A DNA stretch of 32,000 nucleotides from an uncultured Bacilli bacterium (GCA_947627675.1 CANQWY010000010.1:655-32654); one strand, 5' to 3'; shown: positions 12,115 to 28,636, counted from the stretch's first letter. Notes: a model not told the origin generated them from the letters alone. Numbers and translations: made by a program.

Positions 12115-13095
12115 TTATAACCAAACACCAAATATTATTCCCGCCATAGCAAGCACTAATCCAAATATCCAGAAAGTTTTAACAATATCTGTTTCCTTCC
12201 AGCCTAATTTTTCAAAATGATGATGTATTGGTGTCATTAAAAATACCTTTTTATGAAATAATTGTACTGATAATGTCTGAATAATAACGGATAACGTTTC
12301 TATTACAAACACTAATGCAACTACTACAAGTGTTAATTCTCTATGAGTAAGTATTGCAATAGCCCCCATAGTGGCACCTAAAGTCAAACTACCAGTATCT
12401 CCCATAAATATTTTAGCAGGATAAGTATTATATACTAAAAAGCCAAGTAAACTTCCACATAATACTAAAGAAAATATCCCTAAATCTTCATAACCAACCA
12501 TTAATGATATTAAAGAAAAGGCAATAAAAGCTATCGCTGAAAGGCCACCAGCCAAACCATCTAAGCCATCTGTTAGATTAACTGCATTACTTGAGCCAAC
12601 TAATACAAATAAAATAAATAATCCATATACAAATCCAAGTTCTAAATCAATATGTAAAGTACCAACTGTAAAAGCAGTTTGCCCTCCATTTTTCATATAA
12701 ATATAGAAAAAACCTATAGCAATTAAAACTTGCATAAATAGTTTCTGATATGTCGTAAGACCTTCATTATTCTTCTTTTTTATAGATAAATAATCATCTA
12801 AAAAGCCTATAATTGCATAACCTATAAATACTATAAAAATTATTCCTAAATTTGAAGTATATGCTACTTTATCTGTTATTAGTAAAGTAATCATAGTTAA
12901 TAATGTTGATAAAATAAATATTAAGCCGCCCATTGTTGGAGTTCCTTCTTTTTGTTTATGAGACTCTGCAACAAAAACACTAATTCTCTGACCAACATGC
13001 ATTTTTTTTAACCAAGGTATTAATATAAAACCAAACAAACTTGCTAACAAAAAACCAATCATTACAGCAAAAACAGCCTTAGTTAATAACAACAT
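12115..13095 (-). CDS. mraY: Phospho-N-acetylmuramoyl-pentapeptide transferase
   Basis: Polytopic protein with ...KQKEGTPTMGG..., ...NAVNLTDGLDGLA..., ...FMGDTGSL... and ...PIHHHFE.... The ATG at 13095 lies 7 nt after GGAG; the track start at 13098 is a TTG one codon upstream. Confidence 0.95.
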   Translation of the reverse strand: MLLLTKAVFAVMIGFLLASLFGFILIPWLKKMHVGQRISVFVAESHKQKEGTPTMGGLIFILSTLLTMITLLITDKVAYTSNLGIIFIVFIGYAIIGFLDDYLSIKKKNNEGLTTYQKLFMQVLIAIGFFYIYMKNGGQTAFTVGTLHIDLELGFVYGLFILFVLVGSSNAVNLTDGLDGLAGGLSAIAFIAFSLISLMVGYEDLGIFSLVLCGSLLGFLVYNTYPAKIFMGDTGSLTLGATMGAIAILTHRELTLVVVALVFVIETLSVIIQTLSVQLFHKKVFLMTPIHHHFEKLGWKETDIVKTFWIFGLVLAMAGIIFGVWL

Positions 13096-13189
13096 CAAAT
13101 CACTCCATTTCTACTTAGAATATTATAACATACTAATATATAGTTTAATAAATATTTTATATATTATTATACATAAATTTACACTTATT

Positions 13190-15097
13190 TTAATTTCCTA
13201 AAAGTAATCTTATAACTGTATTTTGTTCAACTCTAGTTCCAGCATCTGGTGATTGACCAATAATTTTATCACCACTTCCAGCATATTCGATAGTAAAATT
13301 ATTAAGTAGATCTTCTGCTTCTTTTTTTGTTTTTCCAATTACATTTGGTACTTCATAAACTGGAATATCAGACCATTCTAATTCTTTTTCTATTTGATTT
13401 TTTTGTTTTTTAATATCAAGGGCATCAATTATATCCAGTAAAATTCTTCTTGCTATTGGAGTAGTAGTATAACTTGATAACATAGCTGTATGTTTGGGAT
13501 TATCTATTGCAAGATATAATACAGCTTCTGGATCATTTGCAGGTACAACAGACATAAATGACATAATATAATTATTTACTAAATATTGGCCATTTTCAAC
13601 TTTTTGTGCTGTTCCTGTTTTTCCGCCTATTCTATAACCATCAATATAAGCTGCCCTTCCTCCACCTAAAGCTACAACATTTTCTAAAGCTCTTCTCATT
13701 ATTTTTGAGGTTTCATTACTAATTACTTTTCTTACAAATTTCTTATCATTTTGTTTTATGACATTTCCAGTTTCTTTTTCTAAAATATTTTTAACTACAT
13801 AAGGAGTATATAAATTACCCCCGTTAACAACAGCAGATACTGCCGTTACTTGTTGAATTGGAGTTACACTTATCCCTTGGCCAAATGCTGTTGTTGCAAG
13901 TTCAATATTTCCAACACTTGATAAAGGAAAAATTATTCCCTTTCCTTCACCACTTAGATCTATTCCTGTTTTAGAACCGAAACCAAACTTATCTAGATAT
14001 GAAAACAATCTTTCTTTTCCTAATAGTTGACCCATTTTTACAAAACCAGGGTTACATGAATTTTGAAGTACTTCCATAAAAGTTTGGGCCCCATGGCCTC
14101 CTGCTTTCCAGCATTTTATTATAGCAGTATCAACTTTTACTTTTCCAGCATCATAAAAATGATCATTATCTAAATCAACTACTTTTTCCTCAACTGCAGC
14201 CGCTGTTGTAATAATTTTTTGGGTTGATCCAGGTTCATAAGTTGCCCAAATTGGTAAATTACGACTTAATTCTTCTGTTTTATAATCTTGATAATTATTT
14301 GGATCAAAATTAGGTCTGCTACTCATTCCATATATTTCTCCTGTATTAGGATTCATAACAACTGCTAAAGCCATATCTGGAGTAAACATTGAAACAACAT
14401 TATCTAATTCTCTTTCTAAGGATTTTTGGATATTTATATCTATTGTAAGTTGGATATCCATTCCATCTTGAGGTTCTAGATATATATCAGCCATATCTAA
14501 TTTATTTCCTTTCGCATCGGAAAAATATTTAATAGCTCCACTTTCTCCAGTTAAATACTTATCATACTGAAGCTCAAGTCCTGATAAACCTTGATTGTCT
14601 ATTCCAACATATCCTAAAACATGAGACAATAATTTACCATATGGATAGTTTCTCTTTGATTCCTTAACTAAATAAACTCCTTTTAAATTTAGAGCATTTA
14701 TTTTATCTGCTATTTCATAACTTAATCTTCTACCTTCAGGATGCACTCTCTCAATTGATGTTACTTTACTAACATGTTTATACATTTCTTCATAACTAAC
14801 ATTTAATATCTCTGCTAAAGCTTTAGCTGTCTTTTTCTTATTTTTTATTTGATTTGGTACTACAACAAGTGAAGTTGTAGTAAGATTATCAGCCAATACT
14901 TCACCATTCCTATCTAATATTCTTCCCCTATTAGCCTCCACTGGTAAATCTCTACTCCATAGATCACTTGCAAGATATGATAATTTTTTATAATCAAATA
15001 TTTGAACATAAAAGACTTTCAAAATAATCAAGAAAAATGCTAAAAACAAAAATAATGTAAATATCTTTATTCTTTTATCAATATTTTTTAAAAACAT
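13190..15097 (-). CDS. Class B penicillin-binding protein (FtsI/PBP2B/SpoVD family) with one C-terminal PASTA domain
   Basis: N-terminal TM anchor. Transpeptidase motifs STQK (SxxK), SCN (SxN) and KTGT are present. The C-terminal ...VPNVIGKTKKEAEDLL...GQSPDAGTRV... is PASTA-like. SD is AGGTGA. Confidence 0.9.
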   Translation of the reverse strand: MFLKNIDKRIKIFTLFLFLAFFLIILKVFYVQIFDYKKLSYLASDLWSRDLPVEANRGRILDRNGEVLADNLTTTSLVVVPNQIKNKKKTAKALAEILNVSYEEMYKHVSKVTSIERVHPEGRRLSYEIADKINALNLKGVYLVKESKRNYPYGKLLSHVLGYVGIDNQGLSGLELQYDKYLTGESGAIKYFSDAKGNKLDMADIYLEPQDGMDIQLTIDINIQKSLERELDNVVSMFTPDMALAVVMNPNTGEIYGMSSRPNFDPNNYQDYKTEELSRNLPIWATYEPGSTQKIITTAAAVEEKVVDLDNDHFYDAGKVKVDTAIIKCWKAGGHGAQTFMEVLQNSCNPGFVKMGQLLGKERLFSYLDKFGFGSKTGIDLSGEGKGIIFPLSSVGNIELATTAFGQGISVTPIQQVTAVSAVVNGGNLYTPYVVKNILEKETGNVIKQNDKKFVRKVISNETSKIMRRALENVVALGGGRAAYIDGYRIGGKTGTAQKVENGQYLVNNYIMSFMSVVPANDPEAVLYLAIDNPKHTAMLSSYTTTPIARRILLDIIDALDIKKQKNQIEKELEWSDIPVYEVPNVIGKTKKEAEDLLNNFTIEYAGSGDKIIGQSPDAGTRVEQNTVIRLLLGN

Positions 15098-15159
15098 ATA
15101 GTCACCTATTCTTAATTATGATTTAAAAAAAAGAAAAAGAACATACATTTTGTCGATAT
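15084..15159. repeat. Direct repeat copy A (functional PBP leader, SD and first codons)
   Basis: 76 nt from tttttt-aaaaa-catatagtcacctatt... to ...acatacattttgtcgatat. It matches 18837-18910 with three differences. Confidence 0.9.
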
Positions 15160-15201
15160 ATTCTTATTAATAGGCTCAATAACATTTTTTCAATTATACT
15201 T

Positions 15202-15843
15202 TTATCTAGATGTTATTTTTTTCAAACTTCCATCATCCATTCTATATACTTCATCACATAAAGTATCAATATCTTCTTTTATATGCGTTGCGATTATAAT
15301 TAATTTTCCTTTTTTCTTCTCCTCTAATAATAAATTTCTTATTTTTTTTGCACTTTTATCATCTAAACCATTAAAAGGTTCATCTAAAATTAATACCTTA
15401 GGGTTTTCCATTATAACTTGTGCAATACCTAATTTTTGTTTCATACCTAACGAATATTTATAATATTTTTTATTTCCTTCATCATATAAATCAACTTTCT
15501 TTAAGACATCATCTATTTCTTTATCAGAAATAGAATTTTGTATTGACGCTAATAATAATAAATTTTCTTTTCCAGTTAAATCAGGTAAAAAATTAGGTTT
15601 TTCTATCAACGCACGAGTATTAGGAGGAAAAATATTATTTTCATTAATATCTAAATCATCATATAATATTTTACCTTCTGAAGGTTCATAAAAAGAACAA
15701 ATCAGTTTTAATAAAATACTTTTACCTGATCCATTTCGACCAACAATGCCATATATTTTACCACTGTCAAATGTAATATTTAAATTTTTTATTATTTCAA
15801 TACTATTAATCTTTTTAGTTAAATGTTCTAATTTTATTTTCAT
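15202..15843 (-). CDS. ABC transporter ATP-binding protein (BcrA/LanF-like short ATPase)
   Basis: Walker A GRNGSGKS, signature YSLGMKQKLGIA, Walker B LILDEP. It is the last gene of a tightly packed five-gene operon. Confidence 0.9.
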   Translation of the reverse strand: MKIKLEHLTKKINSIEIIKNLNITFDSGKIYGIVGRNGSGKSILLKLICSFYEPSEGKILYDDLDINENNIFPPNTRALIEKPNFLPDLTGKENLLLLASIQNSISDKEIDDVLKKVDLYDEGNKKYYKYSLGMKQKLGIAQVIMENPKVLILDEPFNGLDDKSAKKIRNLLLEEKKKGKLIIIATHIKEDIDTLCDEVYRMDDGSLKKITSR

Positions 15844-15845
15844 AA

Positions 15846-16532
15846 TTAAATTTTACCTACCTTTTGTATTATTTTTTTACTTTTATATTTGAACAATATT
15901 TTTAATATTATAAATAGTATATACAATACTATAATCATAATAGTTAAACTAGAATAACAAGATATTATATTTTTAGGAAAATAATAACTAATTATAAAAA
16001 TTATTATCATAATAAATATTTTAAATTTTTCTAATAAAAAATACATAATATATATCATTAATGATAAATACTGAATAAAAATATAGTATATATAATCGGT
16101 TATAAATAATTTTAATATATAACCAAAATCCATATTATGTTTAAAAAGAAATATAATAAAAATAATTATAAAATATTCAAGCAACTTAAAAATATACATA
16201 AATAACAAAAACGATAAGAATTTTATTTCAATCCATATAATAGGTTTCATTCTTAAAAATATATTATCCAATTGATATCTAAGATCCTTGGTATATATGT
16301 CAAAAATAAAATATATGCATATAAATAGGTTTAATAAATACATAATTACTTCAATATATAAAGATGTTGAAGTATAATTATTTCCTAAAACTATACTAAT
16401 AACTTCTTTATAATCCATTTTTCCTATAGAATAAAAGATACTTATGATAATAATACTAATAAAATATATAATAAATATCTTTCGCTGTCTTTTAAAAATA
16501 TGACTAATATCATTTAAAAATATATATTTCAT
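15846..16532 (-). CDS. Polytopic membrane protein, putative ABC-2-type permease component
   Basis: 228 aa and almost entirely hydrophobic helices. It sits 1-2 nt from both neighbouring genes. Confidence 0.65.
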   Translation of the reverse strand: MKYIFLNDISHIFKRQRKIFIIYFISIIIISIFYSIGKMDYKEVISIVLGNNYTSTSLYIEVIMYLLNLFICIYFIFDIYTKDLRYQLDNIFLRMKPIIWIEIKFLSFLLFMYIFKLLEYFIIIFIIFLFKHNMDFGYILKLFITDYIYYIFIQYLSLMIYIMYFLLEKFKIFIMIIIFIISYYFPKNIISCYSSLTIMIIVLYILFIILKILFKYKSKKIIQKVGKI

Positions 16533-16533
16533 T

Positions 16534-17271
16534 TTATTTTTTCCTTCTATATATATAATTTAAGCAAAAAATCACTAAAAAATATAATATAAATAAAAAT
16601 AATAGTGTAGATATTATTTCTTTACTAAATGTAGAGTAATTAACATTTGAAAAGTAATTCCAAGGAATAATATTTATAGCATTTTTTATATAATTATTAC
16701 TCGGATATAGAATAAATCCCATTATAAAAACCAAATTGAAAAATAATATTTTCCATTGAATTTTTTGATATAATATAACATTTAGCAAAGAAATTAAAGT
16801 TAATATTAAAAAATATCTTATAATATAAAATATCATATATGTATTATTATCAACAGAATAATTAAGATAATTAAGATTATTTAAATTGCTTCCTTTTAAA
16901 AGAAGACAAAAACTAATAACCATAATAAATAACATTATAAGATAAATTATATTATATATTGATGTAAAAAACATAATTTCTTTTGTAGCTTCCTTTTTTG
17001 ATTTTTTTCTTATTAAATAAAAGTCAAATTTTTTTGAAAAAATAGAACATACAGATAATGTATTAAAAAATACTATCAAAAATAATAATATATTAAATAT
17101 AGGAAATTGGAATATAAGAAGTATAGATTCTGATAAACTATTAGCCTCTATACCTAAAACAATAGCACCATAAAGTGCAATAATTAGTGTAATAAAAAAT
17201 ATAACCTTAAATTTTTCAGTGTCCATTAAATACTTTAATAATACAAAAAAATTATGCGATCTGCTTCTCAT
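16534..17271 (-). CDS. Polytopic membrane protein, putative ABC-2-type permease component
   Basis: 245 aa with about 6 hydrophobic helices. The start is uncertain between 17271 and the ATG at 17226. Confidence 0.65.
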   Translation of the reverse strand: MRSRSHNFFVLLKYLMDTEKFKVIFFITLIIALYGAIVLGIEANSLSESILLIFQFPIFNILLFLIVFFNTLSVCSIFSKKFDFYLIRKKSKKEATKEIMFFTSIYNIIYLIMLFIMVISFCLLLKGSNLNNLNYLNYSVDNNTYMIFYIIRYFLILTLISLLNVILYQKIQWKILFFNLVFIMGFILYPSNNYIKNAINIIPWNYFSNVNYSTFSKEIISTLLFLFILYFLVIFCLNYIYRRKK

Positions 17272-18208
17272 TTTCCATCACTACTTTCTCTTTATTATAT
17301 ATTTTTTTATATATAATTATAAAATTACATAATACAATTAAAAATGAAATTAATAACAATAATCCATAATTCATTTTATCATTAAAAAACCAATAACCAC
17401 TAATATTAAAATATTCTGCCAAACCATTAATATTAAAAATTTTTTTAACAATAATTGAATATAAAACTATATATATAAATAAATATTCAATAAGAAAGAA
17501 AATATAGGATAACACACATGCAATTACAGAATTTTTATTTTTTAAACAATTAATCAAGCCTAATAAGCCATACATAATGCTCATAATATATTGTAATAAG
17601 CAAATTATCGCTCCATATAGAATAAAATTATTATATTTCCAATCACTATATACCGCTATTTGTTTTACTTTTTCATCAACCTTAAAATTAAATTTTGTAA
17701 TTAAACACGATAATATAAATATAAATAATAAACTAACAGGGATAATAAAAGATATTTTTAATATTTTAATAAATTGCACTTTTAAATAATCTTTATATCT
17801 CATTCTAGTTAAGTAATTTTTAAACATGCCTGAATTAAAATATTTATGAATACTTCCTATTACTGCAATTATAATCAATATAGGTGCTAATAACTGCATT
17901 ACTGAAAACAAACCGTTTTCTACTATTTCACAAGTTAAAGTTATTGCATCTAGTTTTTTAAATTTATTTCTTGGATCATTATCTTCTAAATAATTTTTTA
18001 ATTCTTTTTCATTAGGAAATGATGAACAAAATTTATCATTCTTATTTTTGTCTATGAGACACGTTTCTTTTTTATTTTCAAAAAATTGCGAATTTGAATA
18101 ATAATCATTAAAATATTGAAAAAAGGAAAAACATGTAATAAATCCAATAATCACTAAAATTACTACTACTATTTTATTATACTTGAAAAGCTCTCTTAAC
18201 TTTTTCAT
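17252..18208 (-). CDS. Polytopic membrane protein with a Cys-containing extracytoplasmic loop after TM1, putative ABC-2-type permease component
   Basis: 318 aa. The topology is TM1, a ~90-aa loop (4 Cys), then ~5 TMs, which is typical of ABC-2 permeases. Confidence 0.65.
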   Translation of the reverse strand: MKKLRELFKYNKIVVVILVIIGFITCFSFFQYFNDYYSNSQFFENKKETCLIDKNKNDKFCSSFPNEKELKNYLEDNDPRNKFKKLDAITLTCEIVENGLFSVMQLLAPILIIIAVIGSIHKYFNSGMFKNYLTRMRYKDYLKVQFIKILKISFIIPVSLLFIFILSCLITKFNFKVDEKVKQIAVYSDWKYNNFILYGAIICLLQYIMSIMYGLLGLINCLKNKNSVIACVLSYIFFLIEYLFIYIVLYSIIVKKIFNINGLAEYFNISGYWFFNDKMNYGLLLLISFLIVLCNFIIIYKKIYNKEKVVMENEKQIA

Positions 18209-18257
18209 ACTTCCTCCAATAATTGTAATAGAGTGATATTAATTTTACTTTACTTTT

Positions 18258-18650
18258 TTAATATTGCCAAACGCCATTAAATTTTGCTGTCGTTGGCAAT
18301 GATTTATTAGATTTCAATTCCAGTCTATATGCACCAGCATTTTGATTAGAAGCTCCCCAACTGGCATATGAATAAGGAACTTCAATCCAAGAAGAATACC
18401 CAACCGGATCATAATAAGAATAAGTTCTAGCAAGAATAACTCTTCCATCTCCAGTTAAACTATCTGTACAACTAATTTTTTTAATTTGTTGAGGTCCAAA
18501 AGTTTCTTTTTCTTTTTGACCAGAATTCCATATTCCACTAAATACAGGAATGGTTATATTATCAATATTATATTGCTTAGCATTTACACCAAGAGTTGAC
18601 AACATCAAGGCAAATATAAATAATGCAACTGTATATTTTAAATATTTCAT
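18258..18650 (-). CDS. Small secreted protein of unknown function (Sec signal peptide, aromatic/beta-rich mature ~106 aa)
   Basis: The N-terminus MKYLKYTVALFIFALMLSTLGVNA-KQ fits an AxA-type cleavage site. The SD is strong (AAGGGAGG). It is the first gene of the ABC operon. Confidence 0.8.
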   Translation of the reverse strand: MKYLKYTVALFIFALMLSTLGVNAKQYNIDNITIPVFSGIWNSGQKEKETFGPQQIKKISCTDSLTGDGRVILARTYSYYDPVGYSSWIEVPYSYASWGASNQNAGAYRLELKSNKSLPTTAKFNGVWQY

Positions 18651-18686
18651 ACAATTATCCTCCCTTATATCACTCTATCTAAAATT

Positions 18687-18715
18687 ATTCTATACCTTTT
18701 ATTTATATATATCAA
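18687..18715 (-). promoter_or_regulatory. Sigma-A-type promoter of the cassette: TTGATA-17 nt-TAGAAT
   Basis: Minus strand TTGATA (18715-18710), a 17-nt spacer, then TAGAAT (18692-18687). It lies about 37 nt upstream of the ATG at 18650. Confidence 0.45.
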
Positions 18716-18836
18716 GCAGTTAATGTTTAAGTTTCAATATTTTTCAAGACTAAATATAAAGTAATTAATAAATATTATCTTAAACTTGATTTCTCAACAG
18801 TTATATAAATTTTTTTTGGTGCTAAAAGTTTAATTA

Positions 18837-18910
18837 TTTTTTAAAACATATAGTCACCTATTTTTAATTATGATTAAAAAAAAGAAAAAGAACATACATT
18901 TTGTCGATAT
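18837..18910. repeat. Direct repeat copy B (orphan copy of the PBP leader, SD and start; reads ATG TTT TAA)
   Basis: 74 nt. It differs from copy A by A4 vs A5 after the start codon, one C/T substitution and one T indel. Confidence 0.9.
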
Positions 18911-18928
18911 GATCTTTGATAAATAATA

Positions 18929-19987
18929 TTACTTAATTATTAATCTTTTAATTTTTTCTTTTTTAATAGGTGATATTTCATTTATCTGTTTATTAATCCT
19001 TTCCAGTTGATTTCTTGTTTCTAAATAAAAATTTAAAATATCTTTATCTTTTTCTTCATTAAATTGCCGATTTATCATATTACATCTTTCATTTAATTCA
19101 CTTTTATCTAATAAATTTATACTTAATTTACTATCTATATCATAATTATTCTTATCACTTGGTGCTATATATAAAATGTCTTCATCTTCTTTTTTTAATT
19201 TAATATTAGGTTTTAATATTAAATTTTTATATTCATTTATACTTTTATTTGCATTAATTATATCTAAAAACAAATTATTAGTTGCATCATAACTAAAAAT
19301 ATATTTTTCATTTTGAGTTATGGCAATTAAATGATTAGTTTCTACACTATTTAGTTTTAGAAAATTATATAAATCTTTTTTATATATTGGCAAAACATTT
19401 AATTCCCATGTAAAATTACCAATATTATTTTGAATATCAATATATAATGATGTTTGATGCCTACATACTGCTTCTCCTGTTGAAATACGCGCACCCAATA
19501 AATATTCTAGTTCATATTTATTATTTTTTATCGCATATTCTTTAGTCAAATCATTATCATATTTAAATTTTTTATTATATGATAAAAATCCATTACTTAA
19601 CAATAATTGATAAAATATAGCAACATCTATACTATCAGTAATTTTCTGTTTTATAAAAAAAGATACTAACTTATTAAGATAATTATAATAATCCTCTTCT
19701 AATTTTTTATACATATCACTATCACATATTAAGTGTCTAACACCAGCATAAACTCTATCTTGTACTTCATCCCATATGTTTTTATACTTTTCTGAATTTA
19801 ATACATCTGATTGTAATAACTTAAATACAGGTGTTATTAGACAAATACTTAAATTAATATAAATTTTTTCTATATAATCTATAAAAAAGGAAAAAAATTT
19901 AAGATTTTCTTTTTTTATAATATCAATAATAATATATTCTGTATATTTTTTTTCAAACTCAACTAAATCTATATCAAAATCATCCAT
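18929..19987 (-). CDS. Hypothetical cytoplasmic protein; possible papain/transglutaminase-fold Cys-His-Asp enzyme
   Basis: 352-aa ORF with SD AAGGAGA. The spacing in ...TGEAVCRHQTS... followed by ...NHLIAITQNEKYIFSYDATN... resembles a Cys...His-x14-Asp core. This is inference only. Confidence 0.7.
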   Translation of the reverse strand: MDDFDIDLVEFEKKYTEYIIIDIIKKENLKFFSFFIDYIEKIYINLSICLITPVFKLLQSDVLNSEKYKNIWDEVQDRVYAGVRHLICDSDMYKKLEEDYYNYLNKLVSFFIKQKITDSIDVAIFYQLLLSNGFLSYNKKFKYDNDLTKEYAIKNNKYELEYLLGARISTGEAVCRHQTSLYIDIQNNIGNFTWELNVLPIYKKDLYNFLKLNSVETNHLIAITQNEKYIFSYDATNNLFLDIINANKSINEYKNLILKPNIKLKKEDEDILYIAPSDKNNYDIDSKLSINLLDKSELNERCNMINRQFNEEKDKDILNFYLETRNQLERINKQINEISPIKKEKIKRLIIK

Positions 19988-20595: not shown

Positions 20596-20631
20596 AAAAA
20601 GATACTGTCAACACATTTTTGTTGACAGTAT
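20596..20631 (-). terminator. Rho-independent terminator after galE
   Basis: A perfect 11-bp stem, atactgtcaac (20602-20612) with gttgacagtat (20621-20631), and an 8-nt loop. On the minus strand it is followed by CTTTTT. Confidence 0.75.
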
Positions 20632-20633
20632 TC

Positions 20634-25057: not shown

Positions 25058-26509
25058 ATGAGTAAAAAAAGAGATATCATAATAAAATTAGTAAAAATAG
25101 AAAATAATATTGCAAAAATATATGAAAAATTAATTAATTTAGATATTAATGAAAAAAGTAATTCTAATGAATATAAAATAGCTATTAATTATTTGAATGA
25201 TTATGTAGCCTTAGAAAAGAAATATTTAAATGAAATTTATGAATTAGAATATGGAAATGATGGATATATTAAGGATATATGTTCATTAGTAATTGATTTA
25301 GAATATTCTTCTGGATGTCATGATATCTTTATAGAAGAAAATGATACTGATTCTTATTCAAACATTGATACTAGTGATCCTATAAATAAAGAAAATCTAA
25401 ATAGTATTCCTGATATTTATAATAAGATAAATGAATTAGAAAATCGAATTAAAGAAATTGAAAAAAAACTTTACAATTCACAAGATAACACCAACGATAT
25501 CAATAATGATATTGATAATAAACCTGATGATTCTAATAATGTTAATGAATATACTGAAAATAGTGATTTGGTAATTAATGATAATTATTTAATGCAAACG
25601 ATAGCCTTTATAGTTAGAGAATATGGAGAAGAATGTACTTTGGATCAAGAATCTTATCCTTTAACTAAAGATTCTGTATATAATAGTCTTATATATACAA
25701 AAATTATTCATGGATTGCAAATGATTGCTTGTGAAAAAAATATTATAAATATAATTGAAAATACTTTAAGTGATAAAATTTATGACTGTTATTACACATT
25801 ATTAAAAGAAAAAGCTTATCACATATATAAAAAAAATTATCCTAATTATGAAATTAATATGGATAATATAAACATTAGTGACAATTATGGTAATATAGAT
25901 AAAAGTGTATCTAAAATAAAAGAGAATATTTATAGAAATATTGTTAGTTGTTACTGTAATAAAGATATTTTATACTCAACAATTAACGAATTAGATAACG
26001 CTATTAAATTAAGAATGAATATTAAAATTATTACTTTTAATCTAATTTATCATAAATATAGAATAAGTTATATGATAAATTATAAACCTAATGATTATAA
26101 TTTTTATACCAAAAATTACTTATATCCTAATTATATTAATGATTTAGCAATTATAAATTCAGAATATATAGAAAATATAGATGCAAATTTTGGAGATATT
26201 ATAGAATTTATAAAAAATTTAATTGAAGAATATACTGATGAAAAATTAAATCTTTATTATGAGAAGAATATTAATGACGCTTATATAAATGCTATAGTTA
26301 ATATAATTTACAGTATTTGCATATTAAAAGCAAGATTTAATGTTAATGCAGATGAAAATATTAACAATTTCTATTTATATAGAATAAATGCTGAAATATT
26401 TAATAATGAAAAATATAAAGATACATTAGAAAAATCAACAATCGTAAAAAATGCAATTTCAGATATTTTTAAGGAAATCGAGCCCCAAAAAGAATATAAA
26501 AAAATTTAA
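25058..26509 (+). CDS. Hypothetical protein, paralog 1 of a KLVKIENxI-N-terminus family (with Asn/Asp-rich low-complexity insert)
   Basis: 483-aa ORF, N-terminus MSKKRDIIIKLVKIENNIAKIYEKL...EKKYLNEI, internal NSLIYTKIIHGL. No TM or signal peptide. Confidence 0.85.
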   Translation: MSKKRDIIIKLVKIENNIAKIYEKLINLDINEKSNSNEYKIAINYLNDYVALEKKYLNEIYELEYGNDGYIKDICSLVIDLEYSSGCHDIFIEENDTDSYSNIDTSDPINKENLNSIPDIYNKINELENRIKEIEKKLYNSQDNTNDINNDIDNKPDDSNNVNEYTENSDLVINDNYLMQTIAFIVREYGEECTLDQESYPLTKDSVYNSLIYTKIIHGLQMIACEKNIINIIENTLSDKIYDCYYTLLKEKAYHIYKKNYPNYEINMDNINISDNYGNIDKSVSKIKENIYRNIVSCYCNKDILYSTINELDNAIKLRMNIKIITFNLIYHKYRISYMINYKPNDYNFYTKNYLYPNYINDLAIINSEYIENIDANFGDIIEFIKNLIEEYTDEKLNLYYEKNINDAYINAIVNIIYSICILKARFNVNADENINNFYLYRINAEIFNNEKYKDTLEKSTIVKNAISDIFKEIEPQKEYKKI

Positions 26510-26525
26510 TTAGGAGTTATATATC

Positions 26526-27626
26526 ATGAAAAAGATTAAAGAACAAATAATAAAACTTGTAAAGATAGAAAATTCTATAGCAGATATATTTTATAAATTA
26601 TGTTGTTTTGAATGTGACAATTACCAAAAAAAATATAATTTAAAAGACAATTATCTATATCAACTTCTTCAAGATGCTCTTAAAATTGAACAAAAATATA
26701 TAAATAATATAATTATAGATAACATTAAATATTTTATTTATACTGAAAATGTTACAAATAAAAGTAATAATTATGTAGAACAAATTATTATTGATGAAAA
26801 TGAAAATAATCCAATACTTAACATGGTTTATTATGTTGTAAAAAATTATGCTGATCATAATTACTTTTTAGAAGATTATGAAGAAAACGAGAATGATAAA
26901 TACAAAAACAATCTAATATATGAGAGAATACTTAATCAATTATCTATTGCTAATATAGCATATAACTTAAAGGAATTAGAAAATGGCTCTTTTTATAATA
27001 ATATAATTGACAATTCATATAAAGAATTACTAATAAAGTCTGGCTATTTAAATAAAATCCAACAAGAATTAAATACTTATTTTATTGATACATGTTTTGA
27101 AATAGACACATCAATAATGTGGACTAAGAACATAAGTAAATATATTTCTGAAAATAATTTTGATAATATCAATATTCCAAAAACATTAATTATTCAAAAA
27201 TACAAAGATGCCTTTAAATATTGTTATTTTTCAGAATTATTATCATTACCAATGAAAACTAGATTATATTTTGTCTACGGAAAAGAAAAGATTGACTTTG
27301 AATATAGAGAAAGAACTTTTACTAAAGACTATAACTTAATATATTTTTTAGAAGATTTTATACAAGAATATGACAATAATAGTTTTGTAGAAAATAAGGA
27401 ATATGCTATTGAAGATATTATTTATAATAAATGTTACATTAATACAATATTTGAAATAATAAATGATGATGATATAGTTATTGAATATATCGATACAATA
27501 AATAATGAATTGTTTTATAATAAAGAAAAAGATTTTAGTAATTATAGTTATATTTATAATTTATTAAAAAAATACATTGAAGATGTAAAAGAAAATATTA
27601 TTACTAAAAAGAAAGTAAAAAAATAA
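26526..27626 (+). CDS. Hypothetical protein, paralog 2 of the same family
   Basis: 366-aa ORF with SD TAGGAG. N-terminus MKKIKEQIIKLVKIENSIADIFYKL...EQKYINNI, internal NNLIYERILNQL and KYKDAFKYCYF. Confidence 0.85.
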   Translation: MKKIKEQIIKLVKIENSIADIFYKLCCFECDNYQKKYNLKDNYLYQLLQDALKIEQKYINNIIIDNIKYFIYTENVTNKSNNYVEQIIIDENENNPILNMVYYVVKNYADHNYFLEDYEENENDKYKNNLIYERILNQLSIANIAYNLKELENGSFYNNIIDNSYKELLIKSGYLNKIQQELNTYFIDTCFEIDTSIMWTKNISKYISENNFDNINIPKTLIIQKYKDAFKYCYFSELLSLPMKTRLYFVYGKEKIDFEYRERTFTKDYNLIYFLEDFIQEYDNNSFVENKEYAIEDIIYNKCYINTIFEIINDDDIVIEYIDTINNELFYNKEKDFSNYSYIYNLLKKYIEDVKENIITKKKVKK

Positions 27627-27643
27627 TTTTATTTTTAAGGGGG

Positions 27644-28636
27644 GTGATTATTATTAATACTATTAGAGAAAAACTAATAAAACTTGTAAAGATAGAAAAT
27701 TCTATAAAAGAAATTTATATTCAATTAATGCTTTTAGAAATTGAATCTAAAGCAAACAGTTTAGAATATCAAAGAAATATTAATATATTACAAGAAGCAT
27801 TCATGATTGAAACAAAATATCTAAAAGAAATAAAAGAAAAATATAATTTTAATGAATATTATTATTTAAATAATAATCCAGTTAAATATGCAGTATCAGA
27901 ATATGTTAAAAAGGATGATTATTTTATAAATAATAGTGACATAGAAACTAATCCGGTATATATAAGAATTATAAATGGATTATATACTGTTTTATTTGAG
28001 GATAAAATTAAAGATTTTCTTAATAATAATACTTATGATGATACTATTTGGATTAATGAAGCCTGTCATAATTATTATATAAGTGATAAATGTTACCTTT
28101 TCATTGAAGAATTAGATAAGGAAATTAATAGTTATAAATTAAAAGAAAATAATACTGAAAATAACGAAATAATAACTGAATTAATATGCAACAAATATAA
28201 AGAATTATTTAAATATTATCAGATTAGAAATATTATTCTCAAAGAAGAGTATCATTTAAAAAAGCCAAATTTATATCCAATATTTGAAAGTTATAATATT
28301 GTAAATAATTCATACATAAATATAGGAGAGAATAGTATTAACGACATTTTATACACTTTATGCGATGTAATGGATAAATATAGTGATAAAAAAATAAAAA
28401 ACAATCATACTTCTGCTATTAGAAATCTAATTATTTATGGATGTCACTTAAAGGCTGAAATTCGCCTACTTGATAATAAAGAAAAAGTTGAAGAATATAT
28501 TACCACATTATTAACTCAATTATATTATGGTAATTACTATAATATGGAGAATTCTAAAATTTCTAGTGAATATTTTAGAAATTGTCTAATAAATTTAGTA
28601 AGTAAGTTTGATAAAATGAAAACTTTGAAAAAGTAA
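27644..28636 (+). CDS. Hypothetical protein, paralog 3 of the same family (start codon uncertain)
   Basis: ~327-330-aa ORF. N-terminus ...REKLIKLVKIENSIKEIYIQL...ETKYLKEI, internal NPVYIRIINGL and KYKELFKYYQ. The GTG at 27644 is part of the SD GGGGGGTGAT, and the next in-frame codons are ATT x3. Confidence 0.8.
   Translation: MIIINTIREKLIKLVKIENSIKEIYIQLMLLEIESKANSLEYQRNINILQEAFMIETKYLKEIKEKYNFNEYYYLNNNPVKYAVSEYVKKDDYFINNSDIETNPVYIRIINGLYTVLFEDKIKDFLNNNTYDDTIWINEACHNYYISDKCYLFIEELDKEINSYKLKENNTENNEIITELICNKYKELFKYYQIRNIILKEEYHLKKPNLYPIFESYNIVNNSYINIGENSINDILYTLCDVMDKYSDKKIKNNHTSAIRNLIIYGCHLKAEIRLLDNKEKVEEYITTLLTQLYYGNYYNMENSKISSEYFRNCLINLVSKFDKMKTLKK

Follow-up and report, generated by a model that had tools for sequence, protein, structure and literature searches.

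How does a complete five-gene operon come to lie between a cell-wall gene and a second, nearly identical copy of that gene's own leader? The question is raised by 32,000 nt of DNA from an uncultured Bacilli bacterium (GCA_947627675.1, CANQWY010000010.1:655-32654; this whole stretch is called the window below, and positions are counted from its first letter), in which the gene for a class B penicillin-binding protein (PBP) is preceded by a putative ABC-exporter cassette, and the cassette by a second copy of the PBP leader and start codon. We think that this repeat, about 84 bp long, is probably a long target duplication, left when a recombinase-free cassette was inserted into the PBP gene at its leader and first codons. 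The locus fits best into a class of insertions that is known already, though poorly understood, its cargo being unusual in not consisting of restriction-modification (RM) genes; it is not a new class of mobile element.

The duplicated leader and the cassette between its copies

All the genes concerned are on the minus strand and are transcribed in the order rpsP, KH-domain gene, p352, repeat copy B, five open reading frames (ORFs), repeat copy A, PBP gene, mraY. From p352 onwards the features are as follows.

18929..19987, minus: p352, a soluble ORFan that immediately precedes copy B
18832..18916 (core 18837-18910), minus: repeat copy B, the upstream copy (alignment and blastn)
18717..18831, minus: inserted DNA, about 115-120 nt, from copy B to the cassette promoter
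18687..18715, minus: cassette promoter TTGATA-17-TAGAAT (consensus scan and conservation)
18669-18683, minus: conserved box TTTAGATAGAGTGAT of the 5' untranslated region (5'UTR), 3' of the cassette promoter, with the Shine-Dalgarno (SD) sequence next
18258..18650, minus: p130, a secreted protein of 130 aa, signal peptide ending VNA before K
17252..18208, minus: p318, a membrane protein of ABC-2-permease-like topology
16534..17271, minus: p245, a polytopic membrane protein with about 6 transmembrane (TM) segments, no Pfam match
15846..16532, minus: p228, a polytopic membrane protein with about 6 TM segments, no Pfam match
15202..15843, minus: ABC transporter ATP-binding protein (ABC_tran domain)
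15166..15201, minus: inserted DNA, about 36-42 nt, from the ABC stop codon to copy A
15080..15165 (core 15084-15159), minus: repeat copy A, the downstream copy (alignment and blastn)
13190..15097, minus: class B PBP, SpoVD-like, with PBP dimerisation, transpeptidase and PASTA domains
12115-13098, minus: mraY, which follows the PBP gene
14148..19003, no strand: interval in which the two known strains have no substitutions and a single homopolymer indel (16536)

A previous reading of the window, made from the sequence alone (the sequence-only reading), had noticed two near-identical copies with three small differences, and this description holds: by alignment and blastn the copies share a core of 75 columns at 96% identity (15084-15159 and 18837-18910), or 84 columns at 94% identity with looser ends (15082-15165 and 18835-18916), the left end fading out through a shared AAGA. 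The three core differences are an A indel after the T8 run, a G/A substitution and a T indel just after the ATG, two of the three thus being homopolymer indels. The copies have an identical block of 37 nt in common, and an exact block of 35 nt occurs precisely twice in the window; in 100 dinucleotide shuffles it had no match, even with up to three mismatches allowed. About 3.67 kb lie between the copies; the junction at copy B reads p352...GATC-ATATCGAC...T8-AATCATAATTAAAAATAGG and that at copy A ...GAAT-ATATCGAC...T8-AAATCATAATTAAGAATAGG.

Copy A includes the functional start of the PBP gene and the first ~15-17 nt of its coding sequence (CDS), with the SD AGGTGA at 15102-15107, the ATG at 15095-15097 and a product beginning MFLKNIDKRI; the PBPs of relatives begin alike, in agreement with the proposal that this is the working start. 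It also has a weak hairpin (arms 15156-15165 and 15137-15146) and a U-run at about 15123-15136. Copy B, which lies 18 nt past the p352 stop codon, has the same hairpin and U-run and an SD at 18854-18859, and the orphan mini-ORF ATG TTT TAA of the sequence-only reading is indeed there (18841-18849). In related species (e.g. loci L001 and L003) the PBP gene has a single leader, which the T-run and SD of copy A resemble, and this indicates that the repeated sequence is target DNA and not element DNA.

The suspicion that the repeat might be one of a dispersed, multi-copy family can be dropped: there are two copies in the window, no further copy in 1.46 Mb of related loci and no exact match of its 35-mer in JGI metagenomes or IMG/VR, the other similarity in about 100 related loci being weak and confined to the orthologous PBP leader and start. 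Both repeat variants and both junctions of the window are found again in Logan assemblies (k=31) of five sequencing runs, representing two strains, so that this is not a one-off assembly error. In these assemblies three contigs, one with p352, one with the cassette (3774/3775 nt) and one with the PBP gene, end in the shared 37-mer, and four further contigs of 20-50 kb hold p352, cassette proteins and PBP.

The five ORFs of the cassette are confirmed: one encodes a secreted protein with a beta-sandwich fold, three encode polytopic membrane proteins and the last an ABC ATPase. The AlphaFold2 model of p130 (predicted local distance difference test, pLDDT, 88) has a beta-sandwich fold for which Foldseek gives generic beta-sandwich matches only, the best (template-modelling scores, TM-scores, 0.45-0.54) being to the C-terminal domain of the C. 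perfringens enterotoxin, to PirA and to a subtilisin-type protease. Like p245 and p228, p318 has no Pfam match; its topology is an N-terminal TM segment, a loop of ~60 aa and then ~5 TM segments. The best NCBIfam match of the ATPase is TIGR03740, a lantibiotic-protection subfamily, at 167.6 bits against a curated cutoff of 309.75, a score too low to assign it to the LanFEG-type lantibiotic-protection transporters. The whole may be guessed, with some reason, to be an exporter or immunity system of the ABC-2 type.

The operon had also been described as self-contained, with a promoter of its own. Both TTGATA-17-TAGAAT and the 5'UTR box are kept in four other cassettes (L089, L090, L092, L095) despite unrelated upstream DNA, in good agreement with that description. 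DNA homology to the other cassettes is limited to 15211-18680 of the window (67-72% nucleotide identity), from ~30 nt before the start codon of p130 to the ABC stop, with the promoter added by a finer alignment; neither the ~115 nt that separate copy B from the promoter nor the ~40 nt past the ABC stop have any similarity to other cassettes or related loci. At 16536, at the p245/p228 junction, the window has A6 and the second strain (DRR848750) A7, by which the called p245 product changes from 245 to 247 aa.

Does transcription of the cassette continue into the PBP gene? The sequence-only reading saw no convincing terminator on the way and suggested read-through. There is no terminator-like site between the ABC stop and copy A (15166..15201), and the leader does have its weak hairpin and U-run, at the position where several relatives have the intrinsic terminator of the upstream gene, just before the PBP SD. 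This AU-rich, 10-bp hairpin folds no better than shuffled sequence (z = -0.35), so the suggestion stands as a possibility only, and transcription may plausibly read into PBP-mraY. As for other signals, a search of the leader for a structured RNA or riboswitch gave no Rfam match at E<=1, and no convincing sigma-70 promoter was seen by eye, the sites of a consensus scan being no more frequent than in shuffles.

Mobility of the cassette and comparable insertions in relatives

p318 and p130 have homologues only in this clade, within which the five genes co-occur and the cassette is found in at least six unrelated genomic contexts, this locus included. The others are the following.

L089: a 71%-identical cassette, cargo of an integrative and conjugative element (ICE) with type IV secretion system (T4SS) genes and a tyrosine integrase, beside tRNA-Trp
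L090: between lon and rubrerythrin
L092/L093: beside sortase/VanY genes
L097: beside mntP
L098:7548-11001 and L099:2665-6118: between rpmA (L27) and obg

The ICE (L089:1-17872) has genes for TraG/VirD4, TrbC, TrbL, PrgI, a VirB4-like protein, a PemK toxin and a tyrosine integrase of 512 aa; its tRNA-Trp is at 17799-17872, with a tRNA-like remnant near 18010-18065. The cassette of L098/L099 splits the widely conserved rplU-prp-rpmA-obg arrangement and has no flanking repeats. A tblastn search with p318 for a plasmid or phage origin gave no match in PLSDB or INPHARED.

Comparison of the two strains tells us something about timing. DRR848750 differs from the window by 33 single-nucleotide polymorphisms (SNPs) in 11963 nt on the PBP side and by 10 in 3225 nt on the p352 side (0.28%), and these 43 SNPs in 15.2 kb are evenly spread, one per ~350 nt, with a largest gap of 1262 nt. 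Between the SNPs at 14147 and 19004 there is not a single substitution over 4.86 kb (14148-19003), an interval that takes in the cassette and ~0.95 kb at the 5' end of the PBP gene. Had the cassette diverged as fast as the flanks, it would by itself have 10.7 SNPs, and 0 are found (Poisson P = 2e-5; P = 1e-6 for the whole SNP-free gap). An SNP-free cassette between diverged flanks indicates that the cassette region was exchanged or acquired more recently than the strains split. Together, these sequence comparisons support the view that the cassette is a discrete, evolutionarily mobile module that is recent at this locus.

Are there similar structures elsewhere? We compared 1.46 Mb of PBP-centred loci with themselves for direct-repeat pairs of >=40 nt and >=90% identity, 0.3-12 kb apart, and eight pairs only were obtained. 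Four insertions analogous to that of the window can be described.

L080: RelB/ParE module; 92-nt duplication of the ftsW 3' end; empty site in L034, with a single copy and no insert
L011: AAA_14-DUF4143 ATPase gene; 110-nt duplication, small upstream ORF; empty site in L012
L071: AAA_14-DUF4143 ATPase gene; 234-nt duplication of the PBP leader and 168 nt of PBP CDS; no clean empty site
L028: toxin-antitoxin (TA) module; 43-nt repeat directly upstream of the PBP gene; empty site not found

None of these four insertions carries a recombinase. The duplication in L071 leaves a truncated PBP stub of 61 aa, the counterpart of the ATG-TTT-TAA of the window. Position and length (43-234 nt) vary from repeat to repeat, no core is common to them, and beyond the conserved genes the inserts are not alike from site to site, which argues for joining that is not site-specific. 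A further repeat upstream of PBP, in L072, is a pair of paralogous small ORFs and not a target duplication, and was not counted as analogous. Three of six pairs (or four of seven with L072) are at most ~2 kb upstream of PBP-mraY, where 11% would be expected (binomial P 0.004-0.02).

Some observations on the passengers may be added. An AAA_14 plus DUF4143 gene lies directly upstream of PBP in three species (L011:8244-9918, L071:1932-3752, L053:8716-9924), and this family may be a frequent passenger of such insertions; DUF4143 is among the families treated in a survey of the PD-(D/E)XK nuclease superfamily (PMC3424549). Copies of the RelB/ParE module, 73-84% identical in nucleotide sequence, occupy different sites in five species (L080:1707-3046, against the empty L034:4713-4804; L041:9229-9913; L028:995-1615; L026:6602-7253; L016:20644-21323), and in L028 and L041 the module is directly upstream of the PBP gene. 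At L028:658-802, just upstream of the TA module, 64 nt that resemble the right end of the L080 insert are followed by 81 nt of an ftsW 3' end, an orphan copy in a place where there is no ftsW. This fragment could be a footprint from a previous insertion site.

The insertion scenario and its alternatives

By which machinery would the cassette have been inserted? Scans of all larger ORFs against Pfam and NCBIfam revealed no integrase or transposase in the 32-kb window, no tyrosine or serine recombinase is encoded there, and the insert ends have no terminal inverted repeats (the best inverted match, 13 nt with E 0.11, is not terminal on both sides). An insertion sequence (IS) or transposon was rejected on these grounds and on the size of the duplication, 84 bp against the short 2-14 bp of target-site duplications. 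On all of this the sequence-only reading was right. Its suggestion of an att-like core for a recombinase acting in trans fares badly: the cassette-bearing ICE is at tRNA-Trp, nothing in it matches the repeat (a core shared with that ICE was accordingly discarded), and the duplications of relatives have no fixed core.

In the scenario that we favour, a horizontally acquired, self-promoted five-gene ABC-exporter cassette would have entered the PBP leader and first codons with no recombinase of its own. The duplication would rebuild the hairpin and U-run, the SD and the ATG before the PBP gene (copy A), and a dead SD-ATG-TTT-TAA relic would stay behind p352 (copy B). Without such a duplication an insertion at about codon 6-8 would break the PBP gene, and so only events that copy its 5' end would be kept. 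The variable length and position of the repeats, the lack of an element enzyme and the undefined insert ends point to host recombination, for which two routes may be envisaged. In the first, homologous recombination, a circularised fragment with the cassette and one leader-like segment would integrate by a Campbell-type single crossover in the 37-nt block; in the second, a one-sided homologous anchor would be completed by an illegitimate or inter-sister join. Both could yield repeats of arbitrary length and position, and the repeats could then permit RecA-dependent loss, amplification or re-circularisation. The single-crossover model would put the left repeat end at the hairpin base, where the two upstream contexts diverge, and the right end at an arbitrary point ~15-20 nt inside the CDS; it would also explain why the copies differ by 4% and the strains by 0.3%, since the copies would come from different alleles. 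The predicted empty site has a hybrid leader (the left part of B, the 37-mer and the right part of A), GATC-ATATCGAC...T8-AAATCATAATTAAGAATAGG...ATGTTTTTAAAAAATATTGAT, and the predicted junction of a circle or tandem is GAAT-ATATCGAC...T8-AATCATAATTAAAAATAGG...ATGTTTTAAAAAATAATTAAAC.

Several points weigh against this scenario. Nothing corresponding to an empty site of this locus was found in the databases, and the species is known from two strains, both of them filled. The copies of the cassette in relatives have no flanking repeats. The ~4% difference between copies A and B, set against 0.3% between strains, means that a recent duplication in situ needs either fast homopolymer change or copies from different alleles. 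The uniqueness of the repeat and the absence of a recombinase are statements about the 32-kb window and the related loci, not about a complete genome. Graphs built at k=31 would look the same if the site were empty and the cassette a circle of 3.75 kb, since no new k-mer arises from a crossover within the 37-mer. Lastly, we infer from analogy that the structure arose by insertion and not by another route, and the host pathway (crossover or illegitimate joining) is likewise what we infer from the form of the repeats.

The lack of an empty site deserves some explanation. A search of relatives gave no single-copy empty site: 80 species-level relatives of the PBP have no p352, KH or S16 gene upstream, and no cassette. 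Look-ups of the exact proteins (PBP, p352, p318, ABC ATPase, S16) returned two strains only, both with the cassette. We attribute the missing empty site to p352 being an ORFan, for which 5.8 billion proteins gave no homologue, and Pfam and NCBIfam no match. This gene, of ~20% GC, comes after the rpsP-KH pair and before the PBP gene, in a position that is usually that of rimM-trmD. The host lineage consists of uncultured, very AT-rich, gut-associated Bacilli, its relatives being metagenome-assembled genomes such as 'Mycoplasma sp. CAG:877' and Candidatus Onthousia, and the closest species-level PBP match has 89% amino-acid identity. The PBP itself passes the SpoVD equivalog cutoff of NCBIfam (714.8 vs 688 bits), and several relatives have a second PBP match, ~30% identical, at most 10 kb away. 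The sequence-only reading had spoken of a cassette inserted into the leader of an essential gene; analogy and the SNP data argue for the insertion, and 'essential' is an assumption.

Two other explanations seem to us improbable and about equally so. According to the first, the copies are the attL and attR sites of a decayed ICE or island remnant that has lost its own recombinase and is perhaps still excisable in trans. This would fit well with the 71%-identical cassette being carried by an ICE that has T4SS genes and a tyrosine integrase, with the fact that integrative elements landing in a gene end commonly bring a replacement of that end, and with the usual form of att sites, direct repeats of tens of bp. 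That ICE, however, sits beside tRNA-Trp, no part of it resembles the repeat, there is no recombinase in the 32 kb, the duplications of relatives (43, 92, 110 and 234 nt) are at different positions with no common core, and the repeat core has no exact match in IMG/VR and JGI metagenomes.

The second, to which we give a similarly small chance, is that nothing was inserted into a p352-PBP junction and that a local rearrangement became fixed in the species, either by unequal crossing-over or tandem duplication with replacement of the interior, or by a move of the PBP-mraY block and its leader beside a resident cassette. Synteny around PBP-mraY is certainly fluid. Among L001-L080 the gene directly upstream of PBP belongs to 46 families in 65 species, which makes this junction exceptionally fluid; mraY is downstream of PBP in most species, often with kilobases inserted between; and no other gene of the window is near PBP in any relative, even at 88-89% PBP identity. 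The arrangement is present in both known strains, the 4% difference between the copies exceeds that between strains, and Furuta et al. also list a class of 'chance insertion between repeated sequences' (PMC2853133). Against a rearrangement, the cassette is a discrete mobile module with six contexts, it is SNP-free between strains whose flanks diverge by 0.28%, relatives have bona fide insertions with duplicated single-copy targets, and a right repeat end ~15-20 nt inside the PBP CDS fits a breakpoint and not the duplication of a functional unit.

A last alternative, that the assembly or its graph is at fault and that the cassette is in reality a separate 3.75-kb circle, or lies elsewhere, and was threaded in via the 37-mer, can draw on the p352, cassette and PBP contigs ending in that same 37-mer and on an empty site plus a circle using identical k-mers at k=31, but it is very improbable given four independent 20-50-kb contigs with p352, cassette proteins and PBP, a 37-nt repeat that is within the span of ordinary short reads and of larger assembler k values, a cassette with no replication gene, and distinct copy variants tied to distinct flanks in two strains.

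If the insertion scenario is right, it may be asked whether it is part of something more general. One could imagine in this clade an active, recombinase-independent 'repeat-borne cassette' cycle, in which modules (the ABC exporter with its secreted protein, RelB/ParE, ATPase-nuclease genes), selfish or defensive, would insert with duplications of 40-230 bp, preferentially upstream of PBP-mraY, would loop out as circles and would enter other strains again by crossover in the homologous leader. This is a tentative idea that we consider rather unlikely as it stands. If it were true, the SNP-free cassette would be the trace of such a transfer and the ftsW-end fragment of L028 the footprint of a previous site.

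Two features further from the cassette may be recorded here. At 25058-28636 the plus strand has three adjacent paralogous ORFs (483, 366 and 330 aa; 18-20% GC; no Pfam match) with a common block of ~96 nt near their 5' ends, at 67-75% identity. Between galE and rpsP, at 20601-20632, there is a strong palindromic terminator-like hairpin of 12-13 bp with T-rich tails on both strands, which overlaps the best promoter-like match, TTGACA-17-TATTAT with TG.

Comparison with known systems

The signature found here has been described before. 'Insertion with long target duplication' was recognised by Nobusato et al. 2000; Furuta et al. 2010 (PMC2853133), through whom that work is cited here, report repeats of 46-423 bp, unique in the genome and often overlapping a gene end, around inserts of <20 kb with no mobility genes, mostly in naturally competent species, and leave the mechanism open; the hosts in which RM complexes are flanked in this way include Helicobacter pylori, Haemophilus, Campylobacter and Neisseria, among others (PMC2853133). 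With respect to the features used by Furuta et al., we find direct repeats of >30 bp, no adjoining mobile element, an insert of <20 kb and a repeat that is not multi-copy in the DNA covered here (as distinct from a complete genome). As to their comparison with an empty site, copy A only resembles the single-copy leader of relatives, and clean empty sites are those of L080/L034 and L011/L012. The likeness is thus that of a short block between repeats of duplicated target, tens to hundreds of bp long, unique and of variable length, with no integrase, transposase or terminal inverted repeats. The differences are that the known cargo is RM and the cargo here an ABC exporter (in relatives RelB/ParE and AAA_14-DUF4143), that the host is an uncultured low-GC Bacilli bacterium, that the duplicated PBP leader and start codon would rescue the target gene, and that for this event the empty site is missing.

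Campbell integration and the merodiploids of Streptococcus pneumoniae offer a second comparison. In the work of Johnston et al. 2013 on this species, insertions of a lethal cassette were recovered only with a duplication that kept an intact copy (PMC3784515). On the crossover route that we favour, as in these systems, homologous recombination alone would give an insert between direct copies, reversible via the repeats. The pneumococcal duplications described there are of 100-900 kb and are bounded by IS-derived repeats, whereas ours is of 84 bp of unique sequence, and a circular intermediate or competence would here be a supposition.

Cis-mobilizable elements (CIMEs) and other ICE remnants are att-flanked, non-autonomous integrative elements, in which cargo lies without a recombinase between direct repeats. 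Our locus is similar in having recombinase-free cargo between direct repeats by a conserved gene, and related cargo on an ICE; it differs in that there is no shared att core or recombinase, that the related ICE uses tRNA-Trp and that the analogous repeats vary. With respect to cargo, the nearest systems are the LanFEG/BcrAB-like ABC-2 immunity exporters, which likewise combine a lantibiotic-protection-like ATPase with several proteins of ~6 TM segments in an operon. The differences are the score of the ATPase (168 vs 310 bits), membrane proteins and a p130 that belong to no family, and the absence of bacteriocin genes nearby.

What is known of PBPs or ABC transporters is unchanged by this locus. 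Its interest is that long target duplications have been surveyed almost only for RM genes, and that three other kinds of cargo may now be added to them, an ABC-exporter cassette, a toxin-antitoxin module and an ATPase-nuclease gene, two of the events having clean pairs of filled and empty sites and one being apparently recent enough to be SNP-free between strains. Regeneration of the leader and start codon would also explain how an insertion at the very start of a cell-wall gene can be tolerated.

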